Below, piece by piece: positions 3,418-61,342 of a stretch of DNA of 64,000 nucleotides; position 1 is the first letter of the stretch; each line of letters begins with the position of its first letter. The stretch is from Pseudomonas phage pPa_SNUABM_DT01: the sequence record MW735835.1, one strand, 5' to 3'. The notes beneath the pieces are model-generated. The model was not told the origin of the DNA. It saw nothing but the letters and a program-made list of their open reading frames with translations, and did no database searches. Both the position numbers and the translations under genes were made by a program.

Positions 3418-4677
3418 ATGCGCCAAAACTCCATCCTGCAACACGCACTGAACGTGTCTGTTGAATCCCAGCAGGCCGATGCGGCCATTGAAGAGCTGGT
3501 CAGCGAACAAGCCATCGAAGGCATCATGCCGGCTCCCCAAGCGCTCGAAGAGATCGCTCAGGTAGAAGGCGACATCGAGACCCTCGACCAGGTCGAACAA
3601 ACCCTGGGTAGCGACGGCGTATCCCTCGAGTCCCTGGCCCACGCCCGCGGCATCATCGACGCCATCGGCCTGCGCTACGGCGCCACCAGCACCTACGCTT
3701 CCATGGAATCGGCCGACGACTACCGCCTGAACAAGGACGCGATCCTGGCCGATCTCCAGCAGTACCGCACCGGCCTGGAAAGCCACATCACCGCTTCGAT
3801 GGAAGGTTTCTTCCTGGCCGGTAACAGCCTGAAGAACATCGGTAAGAATATCGATGTGATGAAGAAGACCATCACCGTCCTCAAGTCCAGCGAAAACGAA
3901 AAGATCAAAGAGATCAAGTTCGGCACGCTGAAGCTCTTCCTGCGCATCGGCGGCGGTTTCCCGCAAGACCTGCCGCGTGCCATCAAGGAAGTGGGCCGGG
4001 GCCTGGAACTGGCCAACAAGCACTCCGATGACGTCCTGGGCGCTGCGCAACGTGCTGCCGAGATCGCCATCAAGACCGACTGGTCTGACCTGAACGCTGC
4101 CGACAAGGCCCGTGAGCAGATCAAGGGTATCAACCTGGACCTGGCCAAGATCTCCTCCGATCTGAACGGTTTCCCGATGTTCGGCAACCGTGCCTTCGGT
4201 GTGAAGATCAAAGGTGACGCCGGTGAGCTGGGCGAGTGGAACAAGAAGTACTCCTTCGGCGCTGGCACCCCCAACGCTGGCTTCCTGCGCACCACCATCA
4301 TGATGGTAGGTCTGGCCCTGAGCCTGACCTTCAGCCCGCTGGGCGGCATCCTGATCATCGTGGCTGCCGGTAACGCCGGTGGCGGCAAGCGCGAGATCCC
4401 GATCAAGGACTTCGCTGCTGGTCTGAGTGACTACGCCAAGTCCGCTGAGAAGGTGTACGCTCAGCGCGGCAACGCCATCAAGAAGAGCACTGTCCACAAG
4501 AAGCTCATGGGCGACCTGAAGAACGTCAAGGGCCTGCCCAAGGACGTCCGCAAGGCCATCGCTCGCGCTTCCAGCTTCGGCTGGAGCATCTCCAACGGCG
4601 TCTACGACGTTGTGGAGCACAGCGTCTACGCACTGGCTGCTGCCAGCGTGAAAGCTGCCTACAACACCGACGACTGA
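3418..4677 (+). CDS. hypothetical protein with a C-terminal hydrophobic segment
   Basis: 419-aa ORF with a purine-rich SD (aaggaattgcgccATG). It contains a hydrophobic stretch TTIMMVGLALSLTFSPLGGILIIVAAG and is followed by hairpin 4687-4714. Confidence 0.6.
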   Translation: MRQNSILQHALNVSVESQQADAAIEELVSEQAIEGIMPAPQALEEIAQVEGDIETLDQVEQTLGSDGVSLESLAHARGIIDAIGLRYGATSTYASMESADDYRLNKDAILADLQQYRTGLESHITASMEGFFLAGNSLKNIGKNIDVMKKTITVLKSSENEKIKEIKFGTLKLFLRIGGGFPQDLPRAIKEVGRGLELANKHSDDVLGAAQRAAEIAIKTDWSDLNAADKAREQIKGINLDLAKISSDLNGFPMFGNRAFGVKIKGDAGELGEWNKKYSFGAGTPNAGFLRTTIMMVGLALSLTFSPLGGILIIVAAGNAGGGKREIPIKDFAAGLSDYAKSAEKVYAQRGNAIKKSTVHKKLMGDLKNVKGLPKDVRKAIARASSFGWSISNGVYDVVEHSVYALAAASVKAAYNTDD

Positions 4678-4686
4678 TCGTCAACA

Positions 4687-4723
4687 TACAGGGAGGAGCC
4701 TAGGCTCCTCCCTGTATGCCGTG
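4687..4723 (+). terminator. GC-rich hairpin (acagggaggagcctaggctcctccctgt) followed by a TATGCCGTGT box
   Basis: Perfect 12-bp stem with a cctagg loop directly after the stop at 4677. The 3' side carries the conserved TATGCCGTGT motif rather than a U-tract, so it may be a processing or terminator element. Confidence 0.5.
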
Positions 4724-4744
4724 TGTTCGATTCGATTCCAATAT

Positions 4745-4770
4745 TTTTCAATGATACATGATACCAGTGA
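4745..4770 (+). promoter_or_regulatory. AT-rich promoter-like box tttttcaatgATACATGATAcCAGTGA (class A)
   Basis: A near-identical box recurs at 7720-7750, 22371-22396 and 25317-25344, always 40-60 nt upstream of a + strand start. It is AT-rich in a GC-rich genome. Confidence 0.55.
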
Positions 4771-4815
4771 CTAAGGAGAATAATCTCCCTTAACCATCTC
4801 CCTGGAGGAGTTATC

Positions 4816-5425: not shown

Positions 5426-5437
5426 CGACCACCGAAA

Positions 5438-5466
5438 GAAAGGGCCTCCGGGCCCCTTCTTTTTTG
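5438..5466 (+). terminator. intrinsic terminator (GC hairpin gggcctccgggccc plus T-run)
   Basis: Stem-loop followed by ttcttttttg directly after the stop at 5425. Confidence 0.6.
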
Positions 5467-5497
5467 CCCTGAGAGATTCCATTCAAGGAATTCTCAG

Positions 5498-5520
5498 AGA
5501 TACATTATCAACGTGTATAT
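5498..5520 (+). promoter_or_regulatory. promoter-like box gATACATTATCAACGTGtATAT (class B)
   Basis: Nearly identical to 40835-40857 upstream of the putative shell gene. Located about 95 nt upstream of the ATG at 5613. Confidence 0.5.
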
Positions 5521-7301: not shown

Positions 7302-7670
7302 ATGGAACTTTTCGATTATTACGTCGAACCTGTGGTCAATGTAGAGACAGCCTTTAACCATGTGGCCTTAGAGGCCGCTATAAGGCTCATAGAGAGCGAT
7401 TCAGACGTTCACCCGTACAATCCCTCTCAACGCATTGATCTACGTGCTATGACGCACGTGGAGAGCATTAATGCCCTGCGTGAGCTGATCCATATGTCTG
7501 GCTTCGAACTGGACATCAACAAGATCCTCTGCGAGAACAACCGTTTAGAGACCCCGTACGAGCGCACCATCAAGAAGGCGTTCATGACGAATCACTACAT
7601 GGTCGAGTCCTCAAAAGGCTGGCTGGTCTTCGATACTCATGTGGACACTCACATTGAGGTCTACAAGTGA
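7302..7670 (+). CDS. hypothetical protein
   Basis: 122-aa ORF 12 nt after the previous stop. Confidence 0.55.
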   Translation: MELFDYYVEPVVNVETAFNHVALEAAIRLIESDSDVHPYNPSQRIDLRAMTHVESINALRELIHMSGFELDINKILCENNRLETPYERTIKKAFMTNHYMVESSKGWLVFDTHVDTHIEVYK

Positions 7671-7676
7671 ATACTG

Positions 7677-7710
7677 GGGAGAGCGCTTGCTCTCCCCGCT
7701 ATGCCGTGTC
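7677..7710 (+). terminator. hairpin ggggagagcgcttgctctcccc followed by a TATGCCGTGT box
   Basis: Starts 7 nt after the stop at 7670. Same architecture as 4687-4723. Confidence 0.5.
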
Positions 7711-7719
7711 GATTGAAAA

Positions 7720-7750
7720 GTTTTACAGCAATACATGATAGCAGTGAGTA
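7720..7750 (+). promoter_or_regulatory. promoter-like box ttttacagcaATACATGATAgCAGTGAgta (class A)
   Basis: Matches the 4745 box at 20 of 24 positions. Located 32 nt upstream of the SD/ATG of gene 7782. Confidence 0.55.
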
Positions 7751-7781: not shown

Positions 7782-9419
7782 ATGAGTAAAGTTGCAAACG
7801 TAACCATCATCGAAGGCGCTGACAAGATGTTCAAGACCGGCAAGGTCGTCAACACCTTCAAGCTCCTGGAACAGTCCGCTGTGCTGCTGCACGAAGGCAA
7901 GCCCAGCGTGAACCTGCAAGACACCGAGACCCTGATCGTCCGCCGTGGACAGTACGGCGCCATCAATATCAGCATGCTGACCGGTGAAGGCGATGGCGAA
8001 CTGGGCATCAAGATCACTGCCGATGGCCAGGGCTTGGAAGACTGCCACGCAGATCGCACTGGCAACATCATCATGCGTTGGGCCTATTCCAAGATCAAGG
8101 AAGAAGGTCCGTCGCTGTCCGGTGGTGTCGACGATCGTCACGAGCTGGAAGAACAGCGTCGTGATCCGGCGGCCGTGGCCGCACGTGCTGCTCAATCGGG
8201 CGGGCCGGACAACCTGGCCGAAGCTGCGTTCATGGAGAAGATCATCGACATCGAGGCTCACCACAACTCCGACATCAAGACCTCCTTCAACCGCCACGGT
8301 GTGAAGGCAATCCTGACCTGGGCACATCGTCAAGACCTGGACGGCGCCTCGGCAATGGCGCACGAAGGCAAGCTGGTCGATGACACCATCGAAGTCCTGG
8401 CCCGCAATATCCGGGAATTCCCGGAATCTCCGCGTGATCTGCGTGTTGCCCTGAAGGCCGATCCTGCTGGCCTGGGGATCGACGTCGTGGTATTCGGTCG
8501 CACCACTGACCTGTACCGTGTCGACATCGTCAACAACGACCTGAACCTGGTTCATCGCAACTTCGCAGTCAGCAAGGACATGCCGATGGTGATCATCAGC
8601 GACGTTACCATCAACGGTACCGCGCCGGTGACCATGGCTCGTCTGCCGGTGAACGAAGTCACCAGCTTCAACCAGACCACTGCCGATGTGAAGTTCGACG
8701 CGCTGATCCTCAACGCTGACCTGGAGCACGTGATCGCCTACTTCGGTCCCGAGCAACTGGATAAGCTGGTAGGTTACGTGGTCACCGAGGTCTTCAAGGA
8801 CCCGACCGTGACCATGAAGTGGGTGGACAGCATCAACGTCCGTCTGGTCGACAATGCTGATGGCTACTTCCTGGTTGTGGAAGTGGTGCAGCAAGGTTCG
8901 ACTCCGTCGTACGTCGGCGAGCTGTACTCGGTCAACGAGAAGGGTATCCTGATCGAGGACCACAACGTGGCGTTCGCTCTGCACCCGGGCTGGACCATTC
9001 AACTGACTGGCTTCCGGGCTACCCCGGCCAGTGTGCTGATGGGTCGCAGCCATCGTCCTCGCCTGCATGCGGATCGTGACTTCGGTCGTGGCCGTGAGCT
9101 GGGGGATTACGAACGTCTGGGCCCGCTGTCTGGTGGTCAGGAGGAAGAAGAGCAGCGTCGTGAAGATCCGGTCCGTATCCCGAACCGCGAATGGATTCCG
9201 CAGATCAACCAGTTCGTCCACATCGAGGGCGAGCCGACTCTGTACTTCATCGCGGACTACGACCAACTGGAACATCGCTTCCTGCTCAAGCAAGCCGACA
9301 GCAGCCGCCGTGAACGCGACAGCCGTCTGGACAGCCGTTACCGTGACAACCGCAAGAACGCCGACGGCCTGATCCCGGTTGAACCGGGTCGTCTGCGCCC
9401 GTTCACCTTGTTCCACTAA
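7782..9419 (+). CDS. hypothetical protein (545 aa) with a charged RD/E-rich C-terminal region
   Basis: SD ggagatgtatcATG. Long ORF with balanced composition. The antisense ORF 7611..9575 is an artefact. The promoter box and terminators on both sides indicate a separately transcribed unit. Confidence 0.7.
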   Translation: MSKVANVTIIEGADKMFKTGKVVNTFKLLEQSAVLLHEGKPSVNLQDTETLIVRRGQYGAINISMLTGEGDGELGIKITADGQGLEDCHADRTGNIIMRWAYSKIKEEGPSLSGGVDDRHELEEQRRDPAAVAARAAQSGGPDNLAEAAFMEKIIDIEAHHNSDIKTSFNRHGVKAILTWAHRQDLDGASAMAHEGKLVDDTIEVLARNIREFPESPRDLRVALKADPAGLGIDVVVFGRTTDLYRVDIVNNDLNLVHRNFAVSKDMPMVIISDVTINGTAPVTMARLPVNEVTSFNQTTADVKFDALILNADLEHVIAYFGPEQLDKLVGYVVTEVFKDPTVTMKWVDSINVRLVDNADGYFLVVEVVQQGSTPSYVGELYSVNEKGILIEDHNVAFALHPGWTIQLTGFRATPASVLMGRSHRPRLHADRDFGRGRELGDYERLGPLSGGQEEEEQRREDPVRIPNREWIPQINQFVHIEGEPTLYFIADYDQLEHRFLLKQADSSRRERDSRLDSRYRDNRKNADGLIPVEPGRLRPFTLFH

Positions 9420-9434
9420 TCCTGGACAGACGGC

Positions 9435-9479
9435 ATACAGGGCGCCCATTGGGCGCCCTGTATCCGTTTCTTTTTTTTG
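9435..9479. terminator. bidirectional intrinsic terminator (atacagggcgcccattgggcgccctgtat plus T8 on +)
   Basis: Perfect 13-bp stem followed by a T-run on the + strand. It lies between the convergent genes 7782..9419 (+) and 9493..10359 (-). Confidence 0.7.
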
Positions 9480-12419: not shown

Positions 12420-12583
12420 TGTAATGTCTCCCATGGGAAAAAATTCAACTTCGCGCGTGAAGTTACGAATGGTATGGCCCTTGCCTACATTTGAAAACGT
12501 AGGATTCGGTACTCGATGTGTTCGATACCACCACCACATACTATTTTGTTATTTTTTACTGGGTGCAACGGAAGAGGTAGAAG

Positions 12584-13525: not shown

Positions 13526-16105
13526 GTGGACTTCATGACCTCCGATGACTTTCTGATCGACCACGCGTACAAACACGTGTGGTGTGCGCCGGAGCAGGAC
13601 CGGCAGCACATCCTGCGTCCTGCGCGCATCAGCCCTAAAGTCGGGGCTCGTGGAAGTACTGACGTGTTGTGGAACACGTTCAACCTGCCCACCGAAAAAG
13701 AACGCTACCATGTCTTCCAGTTCGGCAACATCGCTCAGAGCAACCTTGATCTGAAGCTGACGCGGAACACCTGGACGAGCGCCAGCTCCCAGATGGTGGA
13801 CAGCATGATGCTGGTGGACATCTACACCGAAAGGGGGTTGATGATTCCGCGTCGGTTGGCGTACTTCCTGATGACCAACGATGGCAACATCGTGATTGCT
13901 GTGGAACACCTGCCGAACATCGGTGACTTCGGTCGCGAAGATATCTACGTTCGTTTCTACAGCAACCAGTTCTTCGCTCGTTTGGACGTGCCCGATGACG
14001 AAGAAGGCATCGAGTACCATTACGGCAAACCGGCCAGCACGGGTCAGCTGAACGCCCTGACGTTCAAGCTGCGCGACCTGCGCCTGAAGTCCGGTTACAC
14101 CTTCGCCTTCGTCAATGGCTGGCGAGTGAACGAGATCAACAACGCAACGGTGGCCATTGGTGACCGGGTGGAGTTGGTCCGTGACAGTTCCGTGGTGCGT
14201 GTAGAAGAGTTCGAGGTCAAAGACCTGCCGGTGTTCCTCTCCGAGTTCGACGAGTGCCAGAAGTACTTGATCCATTCCAAGGTTCCGAACGATGACCAGA
14301 TCTGGTATCGCGACGACCAGGACCTGTTCCTGTACTACAAGAAGACGCCGTTTGTCCACAAGGGCATTTATTACCACAAGAACCAGGAAGACTCCATCCG
14401 CATGGTCACGCATCGGGACTACTCGATTCCGACCGCGTACGTCGACCGGTTCCTGACGCAGAACCCCAACTGGGCGGTGAACAGCCAGCTCACGGTTCAG
14501 CTCGTGGTACGGCGCTCCGGCATGGACAAGGAGCTGATGAGTGAGGCTCACCACATCAAAGAACTGTACAAGTTCGATGACGCGGATTGGCTGGCTGCCA
14601 TCATCGGTACTGAGGCCGTAGTGGACGTGTGGCGGATCGAAGAACTCGAGAAGTCCATGTACACCGCGCTGATGCGCGCCCCTGCCGGTACCATCACCCG
14701 CGAGATGGTCGAAGCCGCTTATGGTTACAACACCATCGCCCGGATCGTGGCGGACACCCCTCAAAAGGTGCCCGGTCCCAAGCAGTGGGTCGAACTCCCG
14801 TTTGGCCTGCGTGGCGAAAGCACCATCTACGAGTACGACTCCTCTGGCAAGTTGCTCGGTTGGTACGCCAACCAGAACGTGCAGTGGTACGTGCCTCGGT
14901 CGCTGCGTTGCAGCTACATCGAAGGCATTGTGGGCAAAGGCACGGACGTGCTCAGCACGGTCTACGCTGGCAACCACAAGCCTGCCGCTGGCCTGACCTA
15001 TCGTTGCTACATCACCGCCATCGAGAACGGTTACCCCACCGGTGACTGGATCGACGTGACCGGGGATGACACCAAATACGACCTCATCGATGGGGAAGTG
15101 GTGTGGAAGGTCAACCCGCTGTTGTTTTACACCGCAATCAAGATGGACGATTCCTTCTTGACCTACAACCTCGAACTCGATTACGCGGACGGGTTGCTGC
15201 GGTTCAGTCTGAACGTGAAGGAGCTGCGCATCAACGGCATCCTTTACACCGGGCTGGTGGAGATCCCGGCAGGGTTGCTGGAGATCTGGTTGAACGGTTG
15301 CCCGCTGATCGAGAAACTCGATTGGTACATGGAAGGCAAGGAAATCGTCATCGTCAACAAGCAGTACCGCAACCGGACTGGCACGTCGAATACCATCACC
15401 ATTCGCCACACCGGCTTCTGCAACCCGGACATGACCCGGGTGAAAGAGTCGGAGTACGGTTGGGTGGAGAACGGTCTCCTGAGCCGGAACAACCGCTGGA
15501 ACCTGCGGGACGACAAAGTGGTGCGTGTCATCGCTGATGGCCGTATCTGGAGCCGAGAAGAATTGAGCTGGGCAGAAGACCGCCCAGAAGTGGTCTTGCC
15601 GGGTGTGCGCAATGGTGCAGCTTATCAGGTCACCGAACCGCTCATCCCGCTGCGCGGCGTGACGTTCGAGGATGCCTACGAGATGCGCGATGTGGCGGAA
15701 GCCACGGACAAGCAGATCGAGGATTACATGACCGAGCGTCTGGGTGAAGTCCCACCGCAAGAGTTCAACCCGATTCCGTTCCGCCACACGCTGTACAGTC
15801 CCTTCGTGGGCAAGCTGATGCATGACCTGATCAGCGGGTACTTCGATCAAACCCCTCTGACCGATTACTACAGCGACGTGGATGTGCGTAAGTGGTGCGA
15901 ACCCTACGTCTGGTTGCTCAAGTACGAGCCGACCAAGCGTAACCTCGACGAGCGGTACGTCGTTGTGGATGCGCATGAGCGCGTAGAGCCGTTCCGGCTG
16001 CCGATTCACCAGTACAACTTCTTGGCCCGCGCCATCAAGGTGATGCTGGACGACAAGATCGACATCACGCACTCGATTCTGATCGACCACCTGCCCATTG
16101 AATAA
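13526..16105 (+). CDS. large hypothetical protein (859 aa), possibly virion structural
   Basis: Protein-like composition. The overlapping minus ORF 12485..16168 (1227 aa) is H/V/D/R/Q-rich antisense. SD aaggtggacttcATG. Confidence 0.7.
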   Translation: MDFMTSDDFLIDHAYKHVWCAPEQDRQHILRPARISPKVGARGSTDVLWNTFNLPTEKERYHVFQFGNIAQSNLDLKLTRNTWTSASSQMVDSMMLVDIYTERGLMIPRRLAYFLMTNDGNIVIAVEHLPNIGDFGREDIYVRFYSNQFFARLDVPDDEEGIEYHYGKPASTGQLNALTFKLRDLRLKSGYTFAFVNGWRVNEINNATVAIGDRVELVRDSSVVRVEEFEVKDLPVFLSEFDECQKYLIHSKVPNDDQIWYRDDQDLFLYYKKTPFVHKGIYYHKNQEDSIRMVTHRDYSIPTAYVDRFLTQNPNWAVNSQLTVQLVVRRSGMDKELMSEAHHIKELYKFDDADWLAAIIGTEAVVDVWRIEELEKSMYTALMRAPAGTITREMVEAAYGYNTIARIVADTPQKVPGPKQWVELPFGLRGESTIYEYDSSGKLLGWYANQNVQWYVPRSLRCSYIEGIVGKGTDVLSTVYAGNHKPAAGLTYRCYITAIENGYPTGDWIDVTGDDTKYDLIDGEVVWKVNPLLFYTAIKMDDSFLTYNLELDYADGLLRFSLNVKELRINGILYTGLVEIPAGLLEIWLNGCPLIEKLDWYMEGKEIVIVNKQYRNRTGTSNTITIRHTGFCNPDMTRVKESEYGWVENGLLSRNNRWNLRDDKVVRVIADGRIWSREELSWAEDRPEVVLPGVRNGAAYQVTEPLIPLRGVTFEDAYEMRDVAEATDKQIEDYMTERLGEVPPQEFNPIPFRHTLYSPFVGKLMHDLISGYFDQTPLTDYYSDVDVRKWCEPYVWLLKYEPTKRNLDERYVVVDAHERVEPFRLPIHQYNFLARAIKVMLDDKIDITHSILIDHLPIE

Positions 16106-20121: not shown

Positions 20122-20126
20122 TGCGG

Positions 20127-20160
20127 CATACAGGGCAGGCCACTTGGCCTGCCCTGTATG
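20127..20160. terminator. GC hairpin catacagggcaggccacttggcctgccctgtatg between convergent genes
   Basis: Perfect 14-bp stem. It lies between the terL stop (20121) and the stop of the minus gene 20164. No U-tract. Confidence 0.5.
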
Positions 20161-20163
20161 TTG

Positions 20164-21039
20164 TCAGTGCGTTTCCAGCCACACCAGCATGCGCAGGTGG
20201 TTGGCGATGGAGCGTGCTCGGGCGAACAGTGCACAGAGGATCTCGCTGTTGAGCGGGTTCTGCATTTCACGGTCAATGAACTGGATGATCCGATGGGGTT
20301 CTTCATCGGTTCTGGCCAACTCACGGAACGATTGCAGTTTGGAGATCTCGACATCCATGGGTGGAAACACTGCGTCGATCTGATCAGCTACTGCATCGAA
20401 GCGTGCGGCCCAATGGACCATCGACTTGGCTTTCTCCGCATCCAAGCGGATCGGGTAGGCCGATTGACCGTAGTCAGGGCGCTGAGGGACCTGGAAGGTC
20501 ACCAGAACGTCACCGCGGAACGGAGAGACCTTGACCAAGGGTGCCTTCTCGCGCATGCCCAGTAGGCACGGCCGGACTTCCGAGAGGATCTCAGCAGCCG
20601 TCTTAGGACGACGAGCGAGTTCGACATCCTTGTTGATGACGTCGAGGCGGTAGGTGGTCATCTGCGCCCAGCCCAGGAAGGCAAAGATCCGAGTCTGCAC
20701 CATGCCAATGATGACCTGGTACATCTTGACCTCGGCCTCCAGTGCTCGGAACACCGCATCACCCAAAGGCTCACCGCCCAGCATCAACCAGGCGGCTACT
20801 GGGGTCTCGAATGACTTGGCCTCCTTACGGTACTCAGCCCGATCCAACCACTCATCCGTGTAGTGGTACTCCGACCCAGGGCGATTCCATGGACCGCTGG
20901 TGATCTTCTGAGTGCCGTAGATCGACGGCAATTCAAAACTACCAAAGATACGACCGAACTTCGACTCGGATTCCATGGAAACTCCAGCAGTCTCCTCACC
21001 TGCATAATTGGCACGCAGATACGCTTCGACGGTGGTCAT
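20164..21039 (-). CDS. hypothetical protein (291 aa)
   Basis: Minus-strand ORF with normal composition. The overlapping + ORFs 20158..20565 and 20654..20863 are weaker. Confidence 0.6.
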   Translation of the reverse strand: MTTVEAYLRANYAGEETAGVSMESESKFGRIFGSFELPSIYGTQKITSGPWNRPGSEYHYTDEWLDRAEYRKEAKSFETPVAAWLMLGGEPLGDAVFRALEAEVKMYQVIIGMVQTRIFAFLGWAQMTTYRLDVINKDVELARRPKTAAEILSEVRPCLLGMREKAPLVKVSPFRGDVLVTFQVPQRPDYGQSAYPIRLDAEKAKSMVHWAARFDAVADQIDAVFPPMDVEISKLQSFRELARTDEEPHRIIQFIDREMQNPLNSEILCALFARARSIANHLRMLVWLETH

Positions 21040-22370: not shown

Positions 22371-22396
22371 TTCAACCATACATGATAACGGTGACT
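22371..22396 (+). promoter_or_regulatory. promoter-like box ttcaaccATACATGATAaCgGTGAct (class A)
   Basis: In the divergent intergenic region, 39 nt upstream of the ATG at 22435. Confidence 0.5.
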
Positions 22397-23159: not shown

Positions 23160-23573
23160 ATGACACCCCTTGACGTTGCAATCCTTGATTTCAAGGAACT
23201 GGTGAAAGTACACCAAGAGCGGACGAACAATCCGAACCCTCCACCTTTGACCCATGAACTGAAGCGGAAGATCGGTGATACCTTGGACCGTATCGCTGAG
23301 TTTGCTGTGGGGTATCAGAAAGACAGCTTGGTCGGATTACCGATCCTGGAGACTGTGGAATCCATGCGCTGTGTCAGACGGGATATCTACGAGCGACTCC
23401 AGGAAGAAGGTATCGAGTACTCCCATGCTGTCTCCAATGGAACCATCGCATGTGTTCTGACGGACAAGGAGACCGGAGCATCCATGCACGTCTCACTGAG
23501 TGATCGATTCGATCATGAGTTGCTCCATCGACTGTCCTGGGAACGGAAGATGGAGTGGGTAAGTCTCCACTGA
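23160..23573 (+). CDS. hypothetical protein (137 aa)
   Basis: ATG (MTPLDVAIL...) inside track ORF 23145..23573. Confidence 0.5.
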   Translation: MTPLDVAILDFKELVKVHQERTNNPNPPPLTHELKRKIGDTLDRIAEFAVGYQKDSLVGLPILETVESMRCVRRDIYERLQEEGIEYSHAVSNGTIACVLTDKETGASMHVSLSDRFDHELLHRLSWERKMEWVSLH

Positions 23574-23588
23574 CAGACATAGAGCCTA

Positions 23589-23625
23589 GGGATCTCCCTA
23601 GGCTCTTTTCTTTTGAATGAAGGGG
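23589..23625 (+). terminator. intrinsic terminator (agagcctagggatctccctaggctct plus ttttctttt)
   Basis: Perfect stem with a T-run, 16 nt after the stop. Confidence 0.7.
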
Positions 23626-23973
23626 GTCTGTATAGTATGCAAGTCTTGCTCACTTACTCGGGAAGGAAAGAGAAGGGGGTAAGACTAATGACGAACGAAG
23701 TGAGGAATTAGTCTGGGGGATGAGATAGGAAGGGTATAGTCTGCCGTGTTGGTGGCTATCTGGAGGGAGAGGTTACTCGACCGGAGGAGAGACAACACAC
23801 GAGCCCTTCTAGTGAGGCGAAGCCTCACCTTATATAGATTTTGGGATGACGACCCAAGTGATATGGCAATTTTCGTAGAGAAAAACTTTTAGACCTCCGC
23901 CCCAGTCAGCGCAAGCTGACGTTTTTATTTTTGATGTCTGGATACTGTATAGCTTCGGCAATGGAGAAAACAC

Positions 23974-24768: not shown

Positions 24769-25260
24769 ATGGATAAGATCGTTCCCTTGAATCGTGCCAT
24801 CACCGCGATGTGCCGAGCCACTGCTGCGGTCCACCCGACCAATGTCACGTTGGCCTGGACCATCTACAAAGTGCCGGCGTTCTTCCTGGCTCAGCGTCAA
24901 GCAGATCAGGTGGCGTATGCATACCCGCTCACCTTGGCCCGTTTGATGTACTGGTTCGGCGATGCTCCGGTCAATGCGGCGCTGCATGCCCAGTGGCCTG
25001 AGACCATCAACCGTGACAAGCGCATGATCCTCGAGGCTTTGTTCAAACGTGTGATGATGCACGTGGATGAGATCCTCGACAGCGTCTCCCACCCAGCCGA
25101 TTGGCCCTCGTTGCCACCGGCCAGCACGGAATCGTTGGAGATCGCCCGTATCCTCCTTGCCTTCGAAGACTTCTTCACCAAGGCGATGGAGAGTGGGGAG
25201 ATCCCCGATACCGAGGAATGGTGGAAAGCCTTGACCGTCAAGGTCGAACCACAAGTCTAA
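24769..25260 (+). CDS. hypothetical protein (163 aa)
   Basis: SD ggagctgccATG. The antisense ORFs 24757..25263 and 24906..25241 were rejected on composition. Confidence 0.6.
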   Translation: MDKIVPLNRAITAMCRATAAVHPTNVTLAWTIYKVPAFFLAQRQADQVAYAYPLTLARLMYWFGDAPVNAALHAQWPETINRDKRMILEALFKRVMMHVDEILDSVSHPADWPSLPPASTESLEIARILLAFEDFFTKAMESGEIPDTEEWWKALTVKVEPQV

Positions 25261-25263
25261 CAT

Positions 25264-25297
25264 AGCGGAGGGCCTAGGCCCTCCGCTTATGCCGCCT
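25264..25297 (+). terminator. hairpin agcggagggcctaggccctccgct followed by a TATGCCGCC box
   Basis: Same hairpin-plus-TATGCC architecture as 4687 and 7677, followed at 25317 by the promoter box. Confidence 0.5.
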
Positions 25298-25316
25298 CAC
25301 CGAATTCTATTCGAAT

Positions 25317-25344
25317 ATTTTTCAGCAATACATAGTCACAGTGA
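25317..25344 (+). promoter_or_regulatory. promoter-like box tttttcagcaATACATaGTcACAGTGAgc (class A variant)
   Basis: Matches the 7720 box at 24 of 28 positions. Located 49 nt upstream of the ATG at 25393. Confidence 0.5.
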
Positions 25345-26630: not shown

Positions 26631-26640
26631 CGGAATAAGA

Positions 26641-26686
26641 GCCGGGGCATGCGCCCCGGCTCTAGTCCTTCTTTTTTTCTTTTTTG
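26641..26686. terminator. bidirectional intrinsic terminator (gccggggcatgcgccccggc plus T-run)
   Basis: Stem followed by cttctttttttcttttttg. It lies between the + gene ending at 26630 and the minus gene ending at 26748. Confidence 0.7.
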
Positions 26687-28374: not shown

Positions 28375-28398
28375 TGATACATTATCTTTGTGCACATA
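28375..28398 (+). promoter_or_regulatory. promoter-like box tgATACATTATCtttGTGcacatac (class B)
   Basis: Located 30 nt upstream of the SD/ATG of the tubulin gene and shares ATACATTATC with 5500, 40837, 50001 and 54912. Confidence 0.5.
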
Positions 28399-28427: not shown

Positions 28428-29420
28428 ATGAATCAGAACAACGGCCTCTCTACCCGCCCCGTCGGCAAGATCCGCATCTACGGTTGCGGTGGTGGTGGCG
28501 TGAACATCGGTAAGGAATACCTGGATCAGGGTCACAGTGGCGACATCGCCAACATCGAGGCCTGCTTCATCGATACCTCCGACGCCAACCTGGAAGACCG
28601 CCTGATCGACAAGACCTGGCTGTTCGACGACCTCGATGGCTCCGGCGCCGTTCGCCAGACCAACGTGGCCGCCATCCAGAAAGCAATTCCCGACATCATC
28701 CGCAAGTTCCCGGCGGCCGACGTCAACATCGTGATCTTCACCCTGGCCGGCGGCACCGGCTCGGTCGCAGGTCCGCTGCTACTGCAACAACTGCTGGCCG
28801 ACGGCCACATGGCGGTCGCCATCGTCATCGGTGCCAAGCACTCCGGCCGTAACGCCGAGAACACTCTGGCCACCGTCAAGACCCTGGACGCCATCCGTCA
28901 CGTCACCGGCAAGCCGGTCGTCATGCACCTGGGCATCAACTCCACCAACGCGCCGACCGATGACGGCGTGGACCGTGAAGCTCATCTGATGATCACCTCG
29001 CTGGCCATGCTGTGCTCCCGCCGTAACCATCGCCTGGACACCGCCGACCTGCGTTCGCTGTTCGACTTCACCAAGTCCACCAGCGCCCCGGCTCAGATGT
29101 GCCGTCTGCACGTGACCGACAACACCGAAGCCTTCAACAAGGTGATGAAGACCGGCCCGCTGGCCGCTGCGTACCTGCTGCGCCAGTCCACCGACCCGGT
29201 ACCGGATCTGTTCGTGCCTTACAGCACCTACGGCACCATGCCGGCCATCGCCCAGGCCAGTGGCAGCCTGTTCTTCGGCATCGAGAGCGGTTCGATGGTT
29301 GAACTGCACAAGCTGGTCGCTGACCTGCAAAAAGAAGTCGAAACCCAGAAGCGGGCGGCTACCCAAGCCACCAACTTCGTCGATGCTCCGCCGGCCGGCG
29401 GCAGCGTCCTGGTCTTCTGA
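28428..29420 (+). CDS. phuZ: tubulin/FtsZ-like GTPase, PhuZ-type phage spindle protein
   Basis: T1 loop IYGCGGGGVNIG (GGGGxxxG) and the tubulin signature TLAGGTGSVAGP (GGTGSG). SD gaggaagcaacacATG. At 330 aa its size fits PhuZ. Confidence 0.8.
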   Translation: MNQNNGLSTRPVGKIRIYGCGGGGVNIGKEYLDQGHSGDIANIEACFIDTSDANLEDRLIDKTWLFDDLDGSGAVRQTNVAAIQKAIPDIIRKFPAADVNIVIFTLAGGTGSVAGPLLLQQLLADGHMAVAIVIGAKHSGRNAENTLATVKTLDAIRHVTGKPVVMHLGINSTNAPTDDGVDREAHLMITSLAMLCSRRNHRLDTADLRSLFDFTKSTSAPAQMCRLHVTDNTEAFNKVMKTGPLAAAYLLRQSTDPVPDLFVPYSTYGTMPAIAQASGSLFFGIESGSMVELHKLVADLQKEVETQKRAATQATNFVDAPPAGGSVLVF

Positions 29421-29427: not shown

Positions 29428-29470
29428 GGACTGTGGAGCTAACCCCTCCACAGTCCTTATGCCGTGTTAC
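29428..29470 (+). terminator. hairpin ggactgtggagctaacccctccacagtcc followed by a TATGCCGTGTT box
   Basis: Begins 8 nt after the phuZ stop. Same TATGCC flank as other hairpins. Confidence 0.5.
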
Positions 29471-34356: not shown

Positions 34357-34705
34357 ATGTAACATCATCCTGGACGGCGTCGACATCCATCGACGCTTCC
34401 TGGACGACCTGTCAAGGGTCTTTGACCACCAGTACGATATCGATGAGGTCTACGCCTTATATCCCGACTGGTGCCGTCGTGGGCAGATTCACGTGGATGC
34501 CTACGCCCGGCCGCTGTACCCGGTTTTCCCCGGCTCCGCAAAAGAAGAGCAAGAAGAAGCCGAAGATAACTTCATAGCCTTGCGAAATGCTATGATCAAC
34601 CTGTACTGCGCGATTGATCGTGCAACTCCCGGATTGGACCGTCGCAGCGTCGTGCATGCTGGATTCTACCCGGGCGAAGAAGCACTGATCATCACCACCC
34701 GCTAA
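34349..34705 (+). CDS. hypothetical protein (118 aa)
   Basis: ATGA-type overlap with the previous ORF. Normal composition. Confidence 0.5.
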   Translation: MAECNIILDGVDIHRRFLDDLSRVFDHQYDIDEVYALYPDWCRRGQIHVDAYARPLYPVFPGSAKEEQEEAEDNFIALRNAMINLYCAIDRATPGLDRRSVVHAGFYPGEEALIITTR

Positions 34706-35954: not shown

Positions 35955-38240
35955 ATGGAAAACCCATTTGTACTTCCAAAGGACGCCTACGTTCGCGATC
36001 TCGATCTGCTGAAAGGCTACTTCAACCAGAACACCCTCTTCCTGCACCGGATGACCGGTCAGCCAAAGGAAAAATGCCTGACCTTCCTCAAGAAGACCCT
36101 GTCTCGTGGCGGCGCATTCCCTCTGCGCGACCCGAACATGCTGGTCCTCAAGCAAGAGAGCCCGGGCAACCGCGTCAAAGACGAGATGACCCTGCTGTCG
36201 TACGTCAATACGGTCACCTCGACCAACCGTATCATGTCGCCGTCGATGGTTTGCTACGAAAACCCGAAGGTATTGAAGTCCCCTTCGGCCAAATTCGTGG
36301 AATCCGGCATCGCTGGGCGTAAGAAAGCCAAGAACGAGATGTTCGTGGCCAAAGTAAACGGTGATGAAGTCCTCGAAAAGATCAAGGACGCCGAGCAGAA
36401 CGCCAAAAAGATCGCGATCAACTCGCTGTCGGGCATGCACGGCTTCACCGGCAACATTCTCTACGTGAAATCGGGCCATTCCAGCCTGACTTCCATGTGC
36501 CGTTCGGCTACGGGCTACGGTAACGCCAACAACGAGAAGCTTTTGGCGGGCAGTCGACACTATCACTCGCCCAAGATAGCCATATCAAACATGCTGGCGC
36601 TGATTGATAGCCAACCGCACGACAAATTCCAGGCGGCGATGGATCATTGCGGCTTTGTGTACCCGACTGTTGAGCAAACCGCCGAGTGCATCAAGCGCAG
36701 CACCGACCTCTACTGGCGTAACGCTGGCAATTTCCAGAAGATCGTGGACTTCATTGTCCGTCTGACCCCGCTGGAACGCGCCATTGTCGTCTACACTGGC
36801 GATCTGTACCATATCGCCAAGTACAACGGTGACTATGTCCGTGGGTTCATGGACAAAATCATCAAGTACGACCCGAAAGCCGACCCGACAGTCGTGGACG
36901 ATGGCTACGCTGTACTTACCGGCAAGAAAATCGACGACGATACCAAGATGCTGGCAACCTACCTCAACGCGGAATACACCCGTGGCGAGAACTTCGACTC
37001 CTTGAAGGAGAAGGGCATGCACGATGTGCTTGCCATGGTAGCCAAAACCGCGTTCAACGTCCAGTCTGTAGTCCAGGAGTACTTCGTGTTCATCCGCACG
37101 ATGCTGACTCCGGTGCTGTTGGCGCCGACCGTGGCAAACATCAAGGGCATCCTGCGTCGTGTGGTGCTGGCTTCTGACACCGACTCGACCATCTTCACCA
37201 CGCAAGAGTGGGTGAGCTGGTACACTGGTAGCGACCATCGCACCAAAGAAGGTGACGGTATCTGGTACACCACGACCTACGTGGCTTGCCAGTGCATCGT
37301 GCACGTCCTGGCCCAATTGTCCGCCAACATGGGGGTGATCCAGGAAGACCTGCACCGCCTGACCATGAAGAACGAGTACGCCTTCCCGGTGTTCACCCTG
37401 ACCAACCGGGCCAAGCACTACTACGCCTTCATGAGCTGCCGTGAGGGCAACGTGTACAAGGACTACGACATGGAGATCAAGGGCGTGGCTCTGCGGTCTT
37501 CTACCGTACCTGTCGCAATCATCAAGCAGGCGAAAGCCATGATGAAGGAGGTCATGACCCGTGCCGACCAGAACCGTCAGTTCACGCTCGAAGAGCTGTA
37601 CCTGACTGTCTGGAAGCTGGAGCAGGACATCTACACCTCCATCAAGAAGGGTGAGCACCGTTACCTGAAGTCGGCACAGATTCAGGCCTTCTACAACAAC
37701 ATGAACAAAGACAACCCGTATCTGGAGAAGACGAACCTTCGTCACTATCACATCTGGGAAATGGTCTTTGCTCCGAAGTACGGTCACGTTGAAAACCCGC
37801 CCTACTCGGTCATTAAGGTTCCGCTGGCGATCAACAACAAGACCGACATGCAGAACTGGTTTGCCCACATGGAATCGGTCGATCCTGACTTCGCAGCGCG
37901 GATGAAGGACTACTGTGACAAGGCAGGCCGGACCGAGATTGGTACGCTGATGCTGCCTCTGTCGATCCTGGCAGGCGTGGGGATGCCCGATGAAGTGATG
38001 GCAGTGATCGACATCCGTCGACTCACCTACGAGATCCTGGAGTCGTTCTACATGATCCTGGAATCGTTGGGTGTGTTCCAGGTGGACAGCAAATACGTCC
38101 GCTTGATCAGTGACATCTATACACCGGAAGGCGAAGTCAACCTGCAACCGGAAGCAACCGATGCGAACAGCCTCATTGAAGAAGATGAGGACCTTCTGTA
38201 CGAGGAAGACGACGATGGAGAAGATTGGCTCGCCGACTGA
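35955..38240 (+). CDS. family-B DNA polymerase, palm/thumb fragment (motifs B and C only)
   Basis: Motif B KKIAINSLSGMHGF (KxxxNSxxG) and motif C VLASDTDSTIF (DTDS). No DxxSLYPS motif A and no exonuclease motifs, implying a split polymerase. Start moved to ATG 35955 (MENPFVLPK), downstream of the terminator hairpin. Confidence 0.65.
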   Translation: MENPFVLPKDAYVRDLDLLKGYFNQNTLFLHRMTGQPKEKCLTFLKKTLSRGGAFPLRDPNMLVLKQESPGNRVKDEMTLLSYVNTVTSTNRIMSPSMVCYENPKVLKSPSAKFVESGIAGRKKAKNEMFVAKVNGDEVLEKIKDAEQNAKKIAINSLSGMHGFTGNILYVKSGHSSLTSMCRSATGYGNANNEKLLAGSRHYHSPKIAISNMLALIDSQPHDKFQAAMDHCGFVYPTVEQTAECIKRSTDLYWRNAGNFQKIVDFIVRLTPLERAIVVYTGDLYHIAKYNGDYVRGFMDKIIKYDPKADPTVVDDGYAVLTGKKIDDDTKMLATYLNAEYTRGENFDSLKEKGMHDVLAMVAKTAFNVQSVVQEYFVFIRTMLTPVLLAPTVANIKGILRRVVLASDTDSTIFTTQEWVSWYTGSDHRTKEGDGIWYTTTYVACQCIVHVLAQLSANMGVIQEDLHRLTMKNEYAFPVFTLTNRAKHYYAFMSCREGNVYKDYDMEIKGVALRSSTVPVAIIKQAKAMMKEVMTRADQNRQFTLEELYLTVWKLEQDIYTSIKKGEHRYLKSAQIQAFYNNMNKDNPYLEKTNLRHYHIWEMVFAPKYGHVENPPYSVIKVPLAINNKTDMQNWFAHMESVDPDFAARMKDYCDKAGRTEIGTLMLPLSILAGVGMPDEVMAVIDIRRLTYEILESFYMILESLGVFQVDSKYVRLISDIYTPEGEVNLQPEATDANSLIEEDEDLLYEEDDDGEDWLAD

Positions 38241-39109: not shown

Positions 39110-39118
39110 TGAGGCAGC

Positions 39119-39149
39119 ATAGAGAGCGGCCAGTGGCCGCTCTCTATGC
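39119..39149. terminator. hairpin catagagagcggccagtggccgctctctatg between convergent genes
   Basis: Perfect 13-bp stem between the + stop at 39109 and the minus stop at 39151. Has CATAGAG and TATGCC flanks. Confidence 0.5.
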
Positions 39150-39150
39150 C

Positions 39151-40278
39151 TTATGCTGGCTCGACGTTGCGATACAAGAACGGACGGATGTTCTTGTCGA
39201 TGTACTGCTTCACCCAAGCGGCCACGTCCGACGGGATCTGATTGACCAGGTACTTGCCGCTGTCTGCTTCGAGCAGGGCACGGCGAATCCGGTTCTTGTC
39301 CGCGTCGTTCTTCTGGTTATTGTTCAGCTGGTCGAACTTGAGCAGCATCGCAATAGCCGGCATCCGAGCAATGGTGAGCGCCCAGATAGCTTGGTTGGTG
39401 AAGGCAATGTCCGGCAGACGTACCGTCTGAAGCAGGTTATCCTGCCCAAACACCGGTACGTTCGCCAGCATCGTCGTGTAGGTGTAGGTTTCCCGGGAGA
39501 ACCGCGCAGCGATCTCTTTAAGGCCTGCCTCCAGCTTGGGGTAGAGGTCAGCCGTATAGAAAGGCATGTCACTGGGTTCCCGTACGTAACCTTCCCCGCC
39601 GATCAAGCTGTGCAGGGTGTTGAGCACCGCCACGTCCAGATGACTGGTCAGCATGTTTGGGATGATCACTTGGCTGATGAAGTGCGCCGTTGGGAGTTGG
39701 AATCCGTCCGGTGCCATCGAAGCCGTGGCCATCCGCCACAGATGGTACTGACACGCCAACAACGGGATGTTAATCTCCAGCACAGCAGTAGCGCCTGCGC
39801 CCAAACCCTTGAAGGTGTGCTCACCATCCAGTTCCAGAATACCGCACCCGGATATAGGATGAGACAATACCCTCACGGGGCTCATATTCCGCCAGTTGAA
39901 CCAGATGTCGATCGGAGAAATGGAGTCATCGGCAATGGCAATGACGATCTCGTTCACGCCTTTGCCGTAGAAATGGCTGTGGTTACGGACTCGTCCGTGG
40001 TGCGCGCCGGTGCACAACCCCATCTGGCCAGAGATGCGATCGACGATGCTGGAGACACGCAGGTAGTAGTCTGGAAGGTTGCCATCGAAACTGATGTCGA
40101 CCATGGCGAGGATCTTGAGCAGCAAGTGGTCGCTCTTGATGTACCCTGGGTTCACCCGGCGGTACTCTTTATAGCGGTCCACCTGATTGGCCATCAACTC
40201 GCGCTTTACATAGTCCAGGCCCATGGTGGCGATGTTAGTCTGCCGTAGCCTGGCCTCAGTGTTGAAGAGTGTGTACAT
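39151..40278 (-). CDS. hypothetical protein (375 aa)
   Basis: Minus ORF with balanced composition. The + ORF 39109..40248 is V/R/H/D-rich antisense. Confidence 0.65.
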   Translation of the reverse strand: MYTLFNTEARLRQTNIATMGLDYVKRELMANQVDRYKEYRRVNPGYIKSDHLLLKILAMVDISFDGNLPDYYLRVSSIVDRISGQMGLCTGAHHGRVRNHSHFYGKGVNEIVIAIADDSISPIDIWFNWRNMSPVRVLSHPISGCGILELDGEHTFKGLGAGATAVLEINIPLLACQYHLWRMATASMAPDGFQLPTAHFISQVIIPNMLTSHLDVAVLNTLHSLIGGEGYVREPSDMPFYTADLYPKLEAGLKEIAARFSRETYTYTTMLANVPVFGQDNLLQTVRLPDIAFTNQAIWALTIARMPAIAMLLKFDQLNNNQKNDADKNRIRRALLEADSGKYLVNQIPSDVAAWVKQYIDKNIRPFLYRNVEPA

Positions 40279-40830: not shown

Positions 40831-40857
40831 ACGGGGATACATTATCAACGTGAATAT
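40831..40857 (+). promoter_or_regulatory. promoter-like box acggggATACATTATCAACGTGaATATcgg (class B)
   Basis: 21 of 22 identity with 5500-5521. Located 68 nt upstream of the putative shell gene within a 295-bp leader region. Confidence 0.55.
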
Positions 40858-49890: not shown

Positions 49891-49996
49891 GGACTAATCC
49901 CATCATCGAGTAGATGAATCGTCACAGGGTCGGACTCGACCCTGTGACGACCTTATACCCTGTTGACGGGAGGATTTCTGCTGAAGCGTTTTATAG

Positions 49997-50020
49997 CGAT
50001 ACATTATATCCTTGAATACC
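49997..50020 (+). promoter_or_regulatory. promoter-like box cgATACATTATatccttgaatacc (class B)
   Basis: Located 25 nt upstream of the ATG at 50045. Confidence 0.45.
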
Positions 50021-54491: not shown

Positions 54492-54504
54492 CGGTCGGAC
54501 GGCA

Positions 54505-54540
54505 TAGAGGAGAGGGGCGACCCCTCTCCTCTTTCTTTGC
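54505..54540. terminator. bidirectional intrinsic terminator (agaggagaggggcgacccctctcctct plus tttctttg)
   Basis: Perfect 12-bp stem between the convergent genes 53106..54491 (+) and 54541..54879 (-). Confidence 0.7.
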
Positions 54541-54900: not shown

Positions 54901-54926
54901 TCTTCAGAAATACATTATCTAGTTGG
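54901..54926 (+). promoter_or_regulatory. promoter-like box ttcttcagaaATACATTATCtagttgg (class B)
   Basis: Shares ttcttcagaa plus the AT box with 62491-62512. Located 38 nt upstream of the ATG at 54964. Confidence 0.5.
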
Positions 54927-59750: not shown

Positions 59751-61304
59751 ATGAAAATTGATGTCTATAGCCACGCACTCAAGGTTACTGGCGTAACCAC
59801 AGAGCGTGACCTTCAGGCGATGTTGCAGTTCTGCCGACCCCTAATCGAGATGGGCTACGAGAAGAGGGGGAAGCGGTTTATCCCCAAGGGACTGCGAACA
59901 TTCGCCGCTGCTACGAAGAACCGACAGGAGTTCAGTTTCCACCGAAACCAGCTCCAGCAACTGAAAAGACACCTGTTCCAGAACTGCGGTTACGCAGAAC
60001 ACCTGGTCCCCATCACGCACCACCTTGTCGAAGACATCAAAGTCGAGAAAGTCAAGTTCGACGTCCGTCACATGCACCCGCCTCGTGAACGACAAGTGGG
60101 CATTATTCAGTACGTGCTTGATGATCAAGACCCCAAGTGGGACCCGATCATCAAGATGGTCACCTTGCAGACCGGCGGGGGTAAAACCTTCGTTGCGCAA
60201 TTCTGCATGAATGAGTTGGGTGTCCGCACCGTCATTCATTTCAAAGGTGGCTACGTGGAGCGCTGGAAGAACGACTTGGAGGAAACCTTCAAGTTCAAGC
60301 GCGGGGAGTTCCTGATCGTTCGGGGCTCCAAGGACCTGATCGCTCTCCAGCAGATGGCACTGGATGGCGACATCAAGGCCCAGGTGATCATCATCACCTC
60401 CGCCACCATGCGTGACTACATCAAGAACTACGAGGAATCCAACGGCAACAGCAAGATCTACCCGATCAAGCCGATTGACTTCTACCCGAAACTGGGTGTG
60501 GGTTTCCGTACCACTGACGAACTGCACCAAGAGTTCCACAACAACTACCGCATCGACCTGTACACGCACATCCCAAAAGCGCTCGGTCTGTCTGCCACGA
60601 TGACCAGCTCGGATGCGTTCAAGAACCGGATGTACGACATCGGCTACCCTGTCATGCAGCGTCACGACGGCGGTGGGTACAACGTCTACATCGGTGTGAC
60701 AGCTATCCTCTACCACATGGACCCCGAGGTCCGTATCCGCTACATGGGTGGTCAGGGTTACTCGCACACCACGTTCGAAGAATCCATCATGCGGCACAAG
60801 GGCCTGCTGAAGAACTATCTGCGCATGATTGACCACGCGATTTACAATCGCTACGTCTCGGTGCGTGAGGAAGGTCAGAAGGCACTGGTGTTCTTCGCCC
60901 GGGTGGACCTGTGCACGCTCATGGTGGAACGTCTCAAGAAGATGTACCCTGAGCTGAACGTCGTGCGGTACGTGGGTTCTGAAGGCGACTCGTACGAAGA
61001 ACTGCTGGAAGCGGATATCGGTGTCACCACCATCGGCTCTGGCGGTACGGCGATTGACATCAAGAACCTGCGGTGCTCGTTCATGACTACCGCGATTGAC
61101 TCCCGTCAATCCAACGAACAAGTGCTTGGTCGGACCCGTCCCCTCAAGGACTGGCCTGATATCACGCCTGAGTTCATTTACTTCGGCTGCCTCGAGATCG
61201 AGCAGCACTGTAAGTACCATCGCAACAAGATCGAGTTCTTCAAGGGCAAGGTCCTGTCGCACATGGAGGTCATGTCCAAGTACGTGCTCCAGCTGCAAGG
61301 TTGA
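59751..61304 (+). CDS. SF2 DExH-box helicase
   Basis: Motif I LQTGGGKTFVA (GxGKT), motif II TTDELHQ (DExH), motif III ITSAT (SAT) and motif VI QVLGRTRP (QxxGRxxR). The antisense ORF 59841..61343 was rejected. Confidence 0.7.
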   Translation: MKIDVYSHALKVTGVTTERDLQAMLQFCRPLIEMGYEKRGKRFIPKGLRTFAAATKNRQEFSFHRNQLQQLKRHLFQNCGYAEHLVPITHHLVEDIKVEKVKFDVRHMHPPRERQVGIIQYVLDDQDPKWDPIIKMVTLQTGGGKTFVAQFCMNELGVRTVIHFKGGYVERWKNDLEETFKFKRGEFLIVRGSKDLIALQQMALDGDIKAQVIIITSATMRDYIKNYEESNGNSKIYPIKPIDFYPKLGVGFRTTDELHQEFHNNYRIDLYTHIPKALGLSATMTSSDAFKNRMYDIGYPVMQRHDGGGYNVYIGVTAILYHMDPEVRIRYMGGQGYSHTTFEESIMRHKGLLKNYLRMIDHAIYNRYVSVREEGQKALVFFARVDLCTLMVERLKKMYPELNVVRYVGSEGDSYEELLEADIGVTTIGSGGTAIDIKNLRCSFMTTAIDSRQSNEQVLGRTRPLKDWPDITPEFIYFGCLEIEQHCKYHRNKIEFFKGKVLSHMEVMSKYVLQLQG

Positions 61305-61307
61305 GTG

Positions 61308-61342
61308 GGAGGGCTTCGGCCCTCCTCTTATGCCGCGTGTCA
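61308..61342 (+). promoter_or_regulatory. hairpin gggagggcttcggccctcc followed by a TATGCCGCGTGT box
   Basis: Same hairpin plus TATGCC architecture. The box overlaps an ATG (61331) that opens the downstream frame. Confidence 0.4.

Follow-up and report, generated by a model that had tools for sequence, protein, structure and literature searches.

The 64,000-nucleotide stretch of Pseudomonas phage pPa_SNUABM_DT01 analysed here (sequence record MW735835.1; hereafter the window) carries, at three gene boundaries, a composite intergenic cassette in which a stop codon is followed after 1-8 nt by a stable GC hairpin, the word TATGCCG, a spacer of 20-29 nt, and an AT-rich box of the form ATACATNRT-N5-TG (box A). 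A preliminary description, made from the letters alone, had placed this three-part unit at 4687-4770, 7677-7750, and 25264-25344. The units are present, with their limits refined to 4685-4770, 7671-7747, and 25261-25344, and the succession of hairpin, TATGCCG(T/C)(G/C)T(G/C), spacer, and box is seen in all three, the box taking the form ATACAT(G/A)(A/G)T-N5-TGA. In place of the GATTC/GAAT that had been described for the spacer, cassette 2 has GATTG/TGAA. The three hairpins have folding energies of -20.7 to -30.7 kcal/mol; the window hairpins measured range from -18.6 to -32.5 kcal/mol, with z-scores of -2.6 to -7.7. As argued below, the cassette is most probably a phiKZ-type terminator lying directly upstream of an early-gene promoter.

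On its sequence, the window (57% GC) is that of a member of the nucleus-forming (chimallivirus, phiKZ-like) clade of jumbo phages. This assignment follows from PHROG matches to terminase, DNA polymerase, chimallin (the nuclear shell protein), two RNA polymerase beta-like subunits of the non-virion RNA polymerase (nvRNAP), and helicase; from 23 genes collinear with phiKZ gp25 (terminase) to gp75 (helicase) in a local tblastn of the gene calls against the first 150 kb of that genome (NC_004629, 1-150000), including gp29/30 (tail sheath operon), gp39 (PhuZ), gp50, gp52, gp54 (chimallin), gp55, and gp65-gp75; and from 17-20 IMG/VR relatives of 250-277 kb, which show 69-84% identity in chimallin and tail sheath. 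Among GenBank phages, tblastn gave 23-34% amino acid identity to phiKZ-like phages of Pseudomonas, Xanthomonas, Ralstonia, and Burkholderia, and no near DNA match to the window was found there. A search of GenBank phages for DNA or protein nearly identical to the cassette region and its neighbouring gene returned no match, no relative of the gene upstream of cassette 1 was detectable in IMG/VR by peptide patterns, and Rfam and tRNA scans of the window were empty.

The word TATKYYG by itself is not enriched in the window (35 copies, as against 30.6 in shuffled sequences); in 17 of the 35, a perfect hairpin of 7 bp or more has the word at its 3' base, an arrangement for which shuffles give 0.1. 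A count free of any preset motif leads to the same word, TATGCC being the top 6-mer in the flanks of strong hairpins (8 observed, 0.07 expected, 122-fold), and it heads the list in the window, the relatives, and phiKZ alike. The hairpin plus TATGCCG element always comes after a stop codon, and a complementary CATA on the 5' side of the hairpins makes TATG the bottom of the stem. Roughly half of the 17 sites are antisense or fall where two genes converge, so that a promoter there would serve no gene; the convergent-junction copies (9428-9469, 20127-20160, 39117-39159, 54506-54532, 26638-26663, and 63557-63591) are found on the strand of the upstream gene. The hairpins with TATGCC noted earlier at 29428-29470 and 61308-61342 are correctly placed. 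Two further sites had been listed as TATGCC boxes only: that at 59736 corresponds to TATGCCG at 59727-59733, which is indeed without a GC hairpin, but that at 39147 proves to be the base of a bidirectional hairpin (39117-39149). Minus-strand copies (9431-9437, 20124-20130, 54500-54506, and others) had been missed, and these decide the interpretation. The strand at convergent junctions, the CATA/TATG stem base, and the stop codon that always lies upstream speak for a terminator and against a promoter.

Two of these sites call for comment. Codon-position GC in the region 38241-39150 favours a plus-strand gene at 38525-39109 over the longer minus-strand open reading frame at 38321-39217; on that reading, the hairpin at 39117-39149 is a convergent, bidirectional terminator. 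The unpaired TATGCCG at 59727-59733 lies 17 nt upstream of the likely helicase start (59751), and it is the one copy that could be a genuine start signal.

By ONT-cappable-seq, Putzeys et al. (2024, Microlife 5:uqae002, PMC10914365) defined 61 intrinsic terminators in phiKZ; their motif, BCCYCCCCHWWDGGGRRGGBYTTATKYYGT, is described as a hairpin with a TTAT region behind it, and a similar motif A has been reported for phage 201phi2-1 (PMC11512511). The phiKZ and window elements have in common a GC-rich stem-loop immediately past the stop codon, (T)TATKYYGT 0-4 nt after the stem, a 5' CATA(A) complement that makes the whole quasi-palindromic and, at convergent genes, bidirectional, frequent CTAG or TTCG loops, and often an early promoter after them. 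Window flanks of the form (C)TTATGCCGT fit TTATKYYGT: CTTATGCCGTGTT at 29456 does so base for base, and the cassette flanks GTATGCCGTG, CTATGCCGTG, and TTATGCCGCC agree with it, save that the last T is C in TTATGCCGCC. The first 150 kb of phiKZ hold 25 hairpin-linked copies of TATKYYG, compared with 1.3 in shuffles. When placed on the genome, the published 3'-end coordinates put the RNA end between -1 and +2 nt of the G in TATK for 20 of the 26 hairpin terminators; this G, within 2 nt of the RNA end, is the same nucleotide that serves as +1 of late promoters. Composites with both RNA ends mapped also exist in phiKZ, namely T011 (3' end 23552) followed by the early start P012 (23599), T015 (29374) followed by P017 (29413), and, upstream of gp68, T031 (57939) followed by P034 (57998); past T057 (120629), the sequence has an early-type box. 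In the three mapped pairs, the distance from 3' end to start is 39-59 nt, which matches the approximately 45 nt predicted for the window cassettes.

Mapping of 3' ends in phiKZ does not by itself separate termination from RNA processing, and the hairpin plus TATGCCGU might instead be a processing or stabilisation site, where the polymerase reads through and the flank is then cut by a nuclease, leaving a new 3' end guarded by the stem-loop. A sequence-specific flank would suit recognition by a nuclease, and in the window clade, which fixes the K of the phiKZ motif as G and the YY as CC, the flank is not U-rich. Nevertheless, the phiKZ-type and 201phi2-1 elements have been classed as intrinsic terminators, eight of those from 201phi2-1 were active in an in vivo terminator trap, and a position at every operon end, convergent ones included, together with bidirectional symmetry, is typical of terminators. 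Processing is accordingly considered very unlikely.

Box A, in the form ATACATNRT-N5-TG, occurs nine times in the window, where 0.12 copies are expected, and all nine are intergenic plus-strand copies with a start codon 46-113 nt downstream. Among the genes preceded by a copy are the homologues of gp54 (chimallin), gp68, gp71-73, and gp39 (PhuZ). The early promoters of phiKZ are used by the virion RNA polymerase (vRNAP) (Ceyssens et al. 2014; Wicke et al. 2021; sequences in Putzeys et al., Table S3) and read ...AAAAATTTGAGATCTATATTAC-N5-TG. The window boxes, TTTC(A/T)...ATACAT(G/T)AT-N5-TG, have the same spacing between core and TG, and both kinds of promoter combine an AT-rich upstream part with a core TAYATKAY, 5 nt, and TG at the start, stand before chimallin and gp68, and often follow a terminator 3' end at the distance given above. 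By comparison, the core of phiKZ is TATATTAC rather than ATACAT(G/T)AT, and its upstream part is a plain A/T run where the window has a clade-specific ATTCGA(TTCGA). The phiKZ promoters P028 and P034 occupy the orthologous positions at chimallin and gp68, and this, with the shared geometry, upholds the earlier suggestion that the AT box is a promoter; we predict it to be an early, vRNAP-dependent one. In the relatives, the stretch ATTCGA(TTCGA)-N-TTTCAAYRATACAT...GTGA is invariant both at cassette 1 and upstream of chimallin, for which reason the spacer of the cassette is regarded as the upstream half of the promoter.

Two small structures were observed near predicted early starts. At 4775-4788, a short distance past the point where the cassette 1 early transcript is predicted to begin, there is a hairpin, GGAGA-ATAA-TCTCC; its arms covary in relatives (GGTAGA/TCTACC, GGAAGA/TCTTCC), and it is probably a 5'-end stem-loop of the mRNA. 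The chimallin 5' leader contains the palindrome GTTCACTAGGCC(C)TAGTAAC (approximately 40884-40903), kept in 15 relatives, between the early promoter and the ribosome-binding site.

A hairpin next to a promoter recalls the phage N4 type of promoter, in which a short stem of conserved sequence with a 3-nt loop stands at a fixed distance from the start and is used by a virion RNA polymerase. This was rejected: the window stems measure 7-16 bp and are unrelated in sequence between copies, and hairpins occur without a promoter and promoters without a hairpin.

Cassette 1 has orthologues in approximately 11 of the IMG/VR relatives. In the resulting 12-sequence alignment, six of the 12 stem pairs show compensatory double changes, while T.TATGC.G, ATTC.A, TTTCAA, ATACAT, and TGA are invariant, and in most orthologues TATG is base-paired with the upstream CATA as the bottom of the stem. 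Three other elements, the terminator of the tail sheath operon, the terminase-junction hairpin, and the gp52 terminator, recur in 17-20 relatives; their stems are unrelated, and their flanks read TATG(C/T)(C/T)GT. Of these, the first (9428-9469) is present in 20 relatives with different stems, and the gp52-junction terminator (39117-39159) has an orthologue, with covarying stems, in 17 of 17. The same grammar of GGCATA, hairpin, and (C)TATGYY is found in Xanthomonas phage Xoo-sp14 (MT939492, GC 57.5%), and with the relatives this indicates that it spans the family whatever the base composition. A scan of IMG/VR with the pattern TATGCCG-N15-45-ATACATNAT was too unspecific to add to this, the matches listed being mostly unrelated contigs.

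Units that recur and contain palindromes, several of them with a CCTAGG centre, might also be copies of a mobile or recombination-spread repeat (like repetitive extragenic palindromes or miniature inverted-repeat transposable elements), or palindromes bound by protein at the DNA level, with no role in transcription. The stems, however, are wholly different from copy to copy, and those of orthologues covary; what the copies have in common is confined to the flank and promoter motifs; relatives carry the units at fixed, orthologous gene boundaries; and neither target-site duplications nor copies inside genes were found. Because the stems of different copies are unrelated, we reject this explanation as extremely improbable.

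What we observe is the architecture of the cassette, an excess of it over chance, conservation with covariation in relatives, and a one-to-one match with mapped phiKZ elements. The layout is an ordinary one for phiKZ-like nucleus-forming phages, its terminator-promoter order having already been mapped at the RNA level in phiKZ. Some terminators (29428, 61302, 63253, and those at convergent ends) lack box A, and some copies of box A (22378, 28377, and 54910) lack a terminator, which shows that the cassette consists of two juxtaposed modules and is not a single obligate element.

We infer the following for the RNA ends of this phage and the polymerase acting at each signal. Just past the stop codon, the transcript would form a GC-rich hairpin, its base extended by CAUA/UAUG pairs and followed by (U)UAUGCCGU, and the phage RNA polymerase would release the upstream transcript in this flank without an accessory factor, at or a few nucleotides past the G, as in phiKZ. 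Some 10-20 nt farther on, an early-class promoter, with an ATTCGA...TTTC upstream element and a core TACATKAT-N5-TG, would be used by the virion RNA polymerase, so that transcription of the next gene begins approximately 45 nt downstream of the predicted upstream 3' end. The terminator would presumably shield the early gene from upstream read-through. The earlier proposal that the cassette couples termination of the upstream transcript with re-initiation is supported in this form, with a phiKZ-type terminator flank, box A, and one promoter class.

Several results weigh against the reading as terminator and early promoter. Like a canonical bacterial intrinsic terminator, the cassette has a hairpin at a gene end, but all three lack a U-tract (at least five U in eight), and a generic intrinsic-terminator scan of the window did not call them; the flank UAUGCCGUGU holds four U in ten, as against seven in ten in the typical phiKZ flank UUUAUGUUGU. 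Given the low U content and the missed calls, a purely canonical mechanism of hairpin and U-tract would be weak. The polarity of the stem is inverted, the 5' arm being purine-rich in the window (AGAGGGAGG) and pyrimidine-rich in phiKZ (GCCCTCCC). Purine-rich 5' arms are seen throughout the window, for instance at 46400-46423, 54506-54532, and 63557-63591. Covariance models trained on six (R1) and 32 (R2) phiKZ terminators did not retrieve the cassettes with filters off; their sole match in the window was a weak one on the minus strand at 23572-23613 (E 1.9 with R1, 0.38 with R2). From the failure of the models and the inverted stems it follows that the likeness is one of architecture and flank grammar, and not of alignable sequence or homology. 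The core of box A likewise resembles the phiKZ early box only in part, and at co-directional sites the G of TATG would be a suitable start for the next gene, e.g., 29461 for the ATG at 29488.

The last of these points bears on a proposal of the preliminary description, that the hairpin ends or processes the upstream RNA while the adjacent TATG serves as a late or middle (nvRNAP) initiator, giving two promoter classes per cassette. For late promoters the role of TATG was borne out: this word, whose G is +1, defines those of phiKZ, where GP123 of nvRNAP recognises it on the non-template strand (PMC4666361, PMC12809450), and a second promoter was therefore a reasonable idea. At co-directional sites, moreover, the next ATG follows TATG at a distance of 27-65 nt, with a ribosome-binding site between them; two late starts of phiKZ, P049 and P075, lie 8-13 nt past terminator hairpins; and TATG is also present in the candidate late promoter that precedes the tail sheath gene (AATAGTATGTGG). 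Yet P049 and P075 use a second TATG 8-13 nt beyond the stem, several other starts lie 20-40 nt downstream, and none of the 118 phiKZ start sites examined (P008-P126) falls on a hairpin-adjacent TTATG, to which phiKZ 3' ends map instead. The four bases are the same as in a late promoter, but in the window they follow a GC hairpin, in which they are usually paired, are followed by CCGT, and recur at convergent ends; the conserved context is TATGCCGT, unlike the TAGTATGTGG of the tail sheath leader, and the genes past the three cassettes already own a box A. Because the word fits a terminator flank, is paired, stands at sites with no gene to serve, and coincides with none of these 118 phiKZ starts, a second promoter class finds no support, and we hold it to be distinctly unlikely.

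A likely late promoter of the tail sheath gene, AATAGTATGTGGTGG, is kept in all relatives, is A/T-rich upstream, and has a different downstream context. It begins a leader of approximately 120 nt (12420-12546, minus strand) that is near-invariant in the clade and contains three small hairpins, one of them holding the ribosome-binding region. A search with late-promoter consensus sequences (TAGTATG, WWWNWRTATGYRR) yielded one or two matches, no more than expected by chance.

The features of the terminator-promoter cassettes and the other copies of their parts are given in Table 1.

Table 1. Positions of predicted terminators and early promoters in the window and of sites with the same grammar in phage Xoo-sp14
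Feature	Positions	Strand	Remarks
Cassette 1, terminator hairpin	4685..4718	+	Perfect 16-bp stem, base CATA/TATG; -30.7 kcal/mol, z -6.2; starts 8 nt past stop codon of gene 3418-4677
Cassette 1, terminator 3' flank	4715..4725	+	TATGCCGTGTG; counterpart of phiKZ TTATKYYGT; predicted RNA 3' end
Cassette 1, spacer	4726..4753	+	TTCGATTCGATTCCAATATTTTTCAATG; predicted promoter upstream part (TTCGATTCGATTCC...TTTTTCAATG)
Cassette 1, box A	4754..4770	+	ATACATGATACCAGTGA; putative early-promoter core ATACATGAT-N5-TG(A); predicted start at or near GTGA
Cassette 2, terminator	7671..7710	+	9-bp core hairpin 7676-7697, extended by ATA/TAT to 7671-7702; starts 1 nt past stop codon of gene 7302-7670
Cassette 2, terminator 3' flank	7700-7710	+	TATGCCGTGTC
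Cassette 2, predicted early promoter	7711..7747	+	Upstream element + ATACATGATAGCAGTGA (box 7731-7747); 51 nt 5' of ATG of gene 7782-9419
Cassette 3, terminator	25261..25298	+	11-bp hairpin 25264-25287, flank TATGCCGCCTC 25288-25298; starts directly past stop codon of gene 24769-25260
Cassette 3, predicted early promoter	25299..25344	+	ACCGAATTCTATTCGAATATTTTTCAGCA + ATACATAGTCACAGTGA (box 25328-25344)
Looser cassette	49919..50014	+	Hairpin + CCTTATACCCTG, then box A 49999-50014; 5' of gp68 homologue; position orthologous to phiKZ T031/P034
Lone terminator	29428..29468	+	Hairpin + CTTATGCCGTGTT; after PhuZ homologue 28428-29420
Lone terminator	61302..61340	+	Hairpin + CTTATGCCGCGTGT; after gp75-like helicase
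Bidirectional terminator, convergent junction	9428..9469	-	Minus: hairpin + TATGCCGTCTG after tail sheath/gp30 operon; plus: hairpin + TATCCGTTTCTTTTTTTT
Bidirectional terminator	20127..20160	both	Between terminase (+) and gene 20164-20976 (-); TATGTTGT on +, TATGCCGC on -
Bidirectional terminator, convergent	39117..39159	both	After gp52-like gene (-); minus flank TATGCTGCC, plus flank CTTATGCTGG
Bidirectional terminator	54506..54532	both	T-tract on + (after gp70 homologue), ATGCCGTCC on -
Box A without adjacent terminator	40837..40852	+	88 nt 5' of chimallin ATG; corresponds to phiKZ early promoter P028
Box A behind T-tract terminator	5500..5515	+	Terminator at 5434-5463
Box A alone	22378..22393	+	Divergent intergenic region
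Box A alone	28377..28392	+	5' of PhuZ homologue
Box A alone	54910..54925	+	5' of nvRNAP gp71-73 homologue
Xoo-sp14 sites with the same grammar	1577-1602, 14593-14616, 15902-15925, 34561-34582, 36197-36222		In MT939492

Approximately 12 other window terminators carry T-tracts, e.g., those at 5434-5470, 23581-23615, and 62433-62465. The possibility of two terminator classes was tried, with the TATGCCGT type assigned to nvRNAP and late genes and the T-tract type to vRNAP and early genes: each of the window's six virion-gene units ends in the former, and several early units end in T-tracts. It was rejected, as the units of PhuZ, the helicase, and the gp67 homologue are also of the TATGCCGT type. 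In the relatives, the chimallin terminator is a hybrid, CTATGYC followed by TTTTATTTT, and this, together with the early-gene exceptions, means that the two classes grade into each other. A tendency of late units toward the one type and of early units toward the other is therefore offered as a weak side remark, with exceptions.

The 400 nt at 23574-23973 form a purine-rich stretch without a convincing gene, in which several hairpins, two with TTATA or T-tract flanks, and one TAGTATG were noted; it may represent a non-coding RNA or a cluster of signals.

For annotation, the cassettes supply a transcription-unit grammar for the whole clade (approximately 20 IMG/VR genomes of 250-277 kb). Operon ends are marked by GGCATA-hairpin-TATGCCGT, a type missed by standard terminator finders, or by a hairpin with a T-tract, and early promoters by ATTCGA...TTTCAAYRATACATKAT-N5-TG. 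Phage Xoo-sp14, as a cultured GC-rich chimallivirus, could be an experimental stand-in.

The flank is the same in a phage of 37% GC and in phages of 57% GC, which suggests that these non-canonical polymerases rely on specific bases, and not on a U-tract, for termination. One tentative extension, which we think possible although rather unlikely, is that the flank TATG(Y)(Y)G(T) is more than a weak U-tract, and that elongating polymerase is made to pause at terminators by the pocket in which GP123 binds non-template TATG. GP123 is a core subunit and is therefore present during elongation. In keeping with the idea, U-richness has been lost while TATGYYGT is kept in the GC-rich clade and in Xoo-sp14, and TATG is invariant where simple pairing would permit covariation; with the phiKZ 3' ends at the +1 G, these observations may have a common cause in the GP123 pocket. 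If this were true, one four-base word would mark both the start and the stop sites of the same polymerase.

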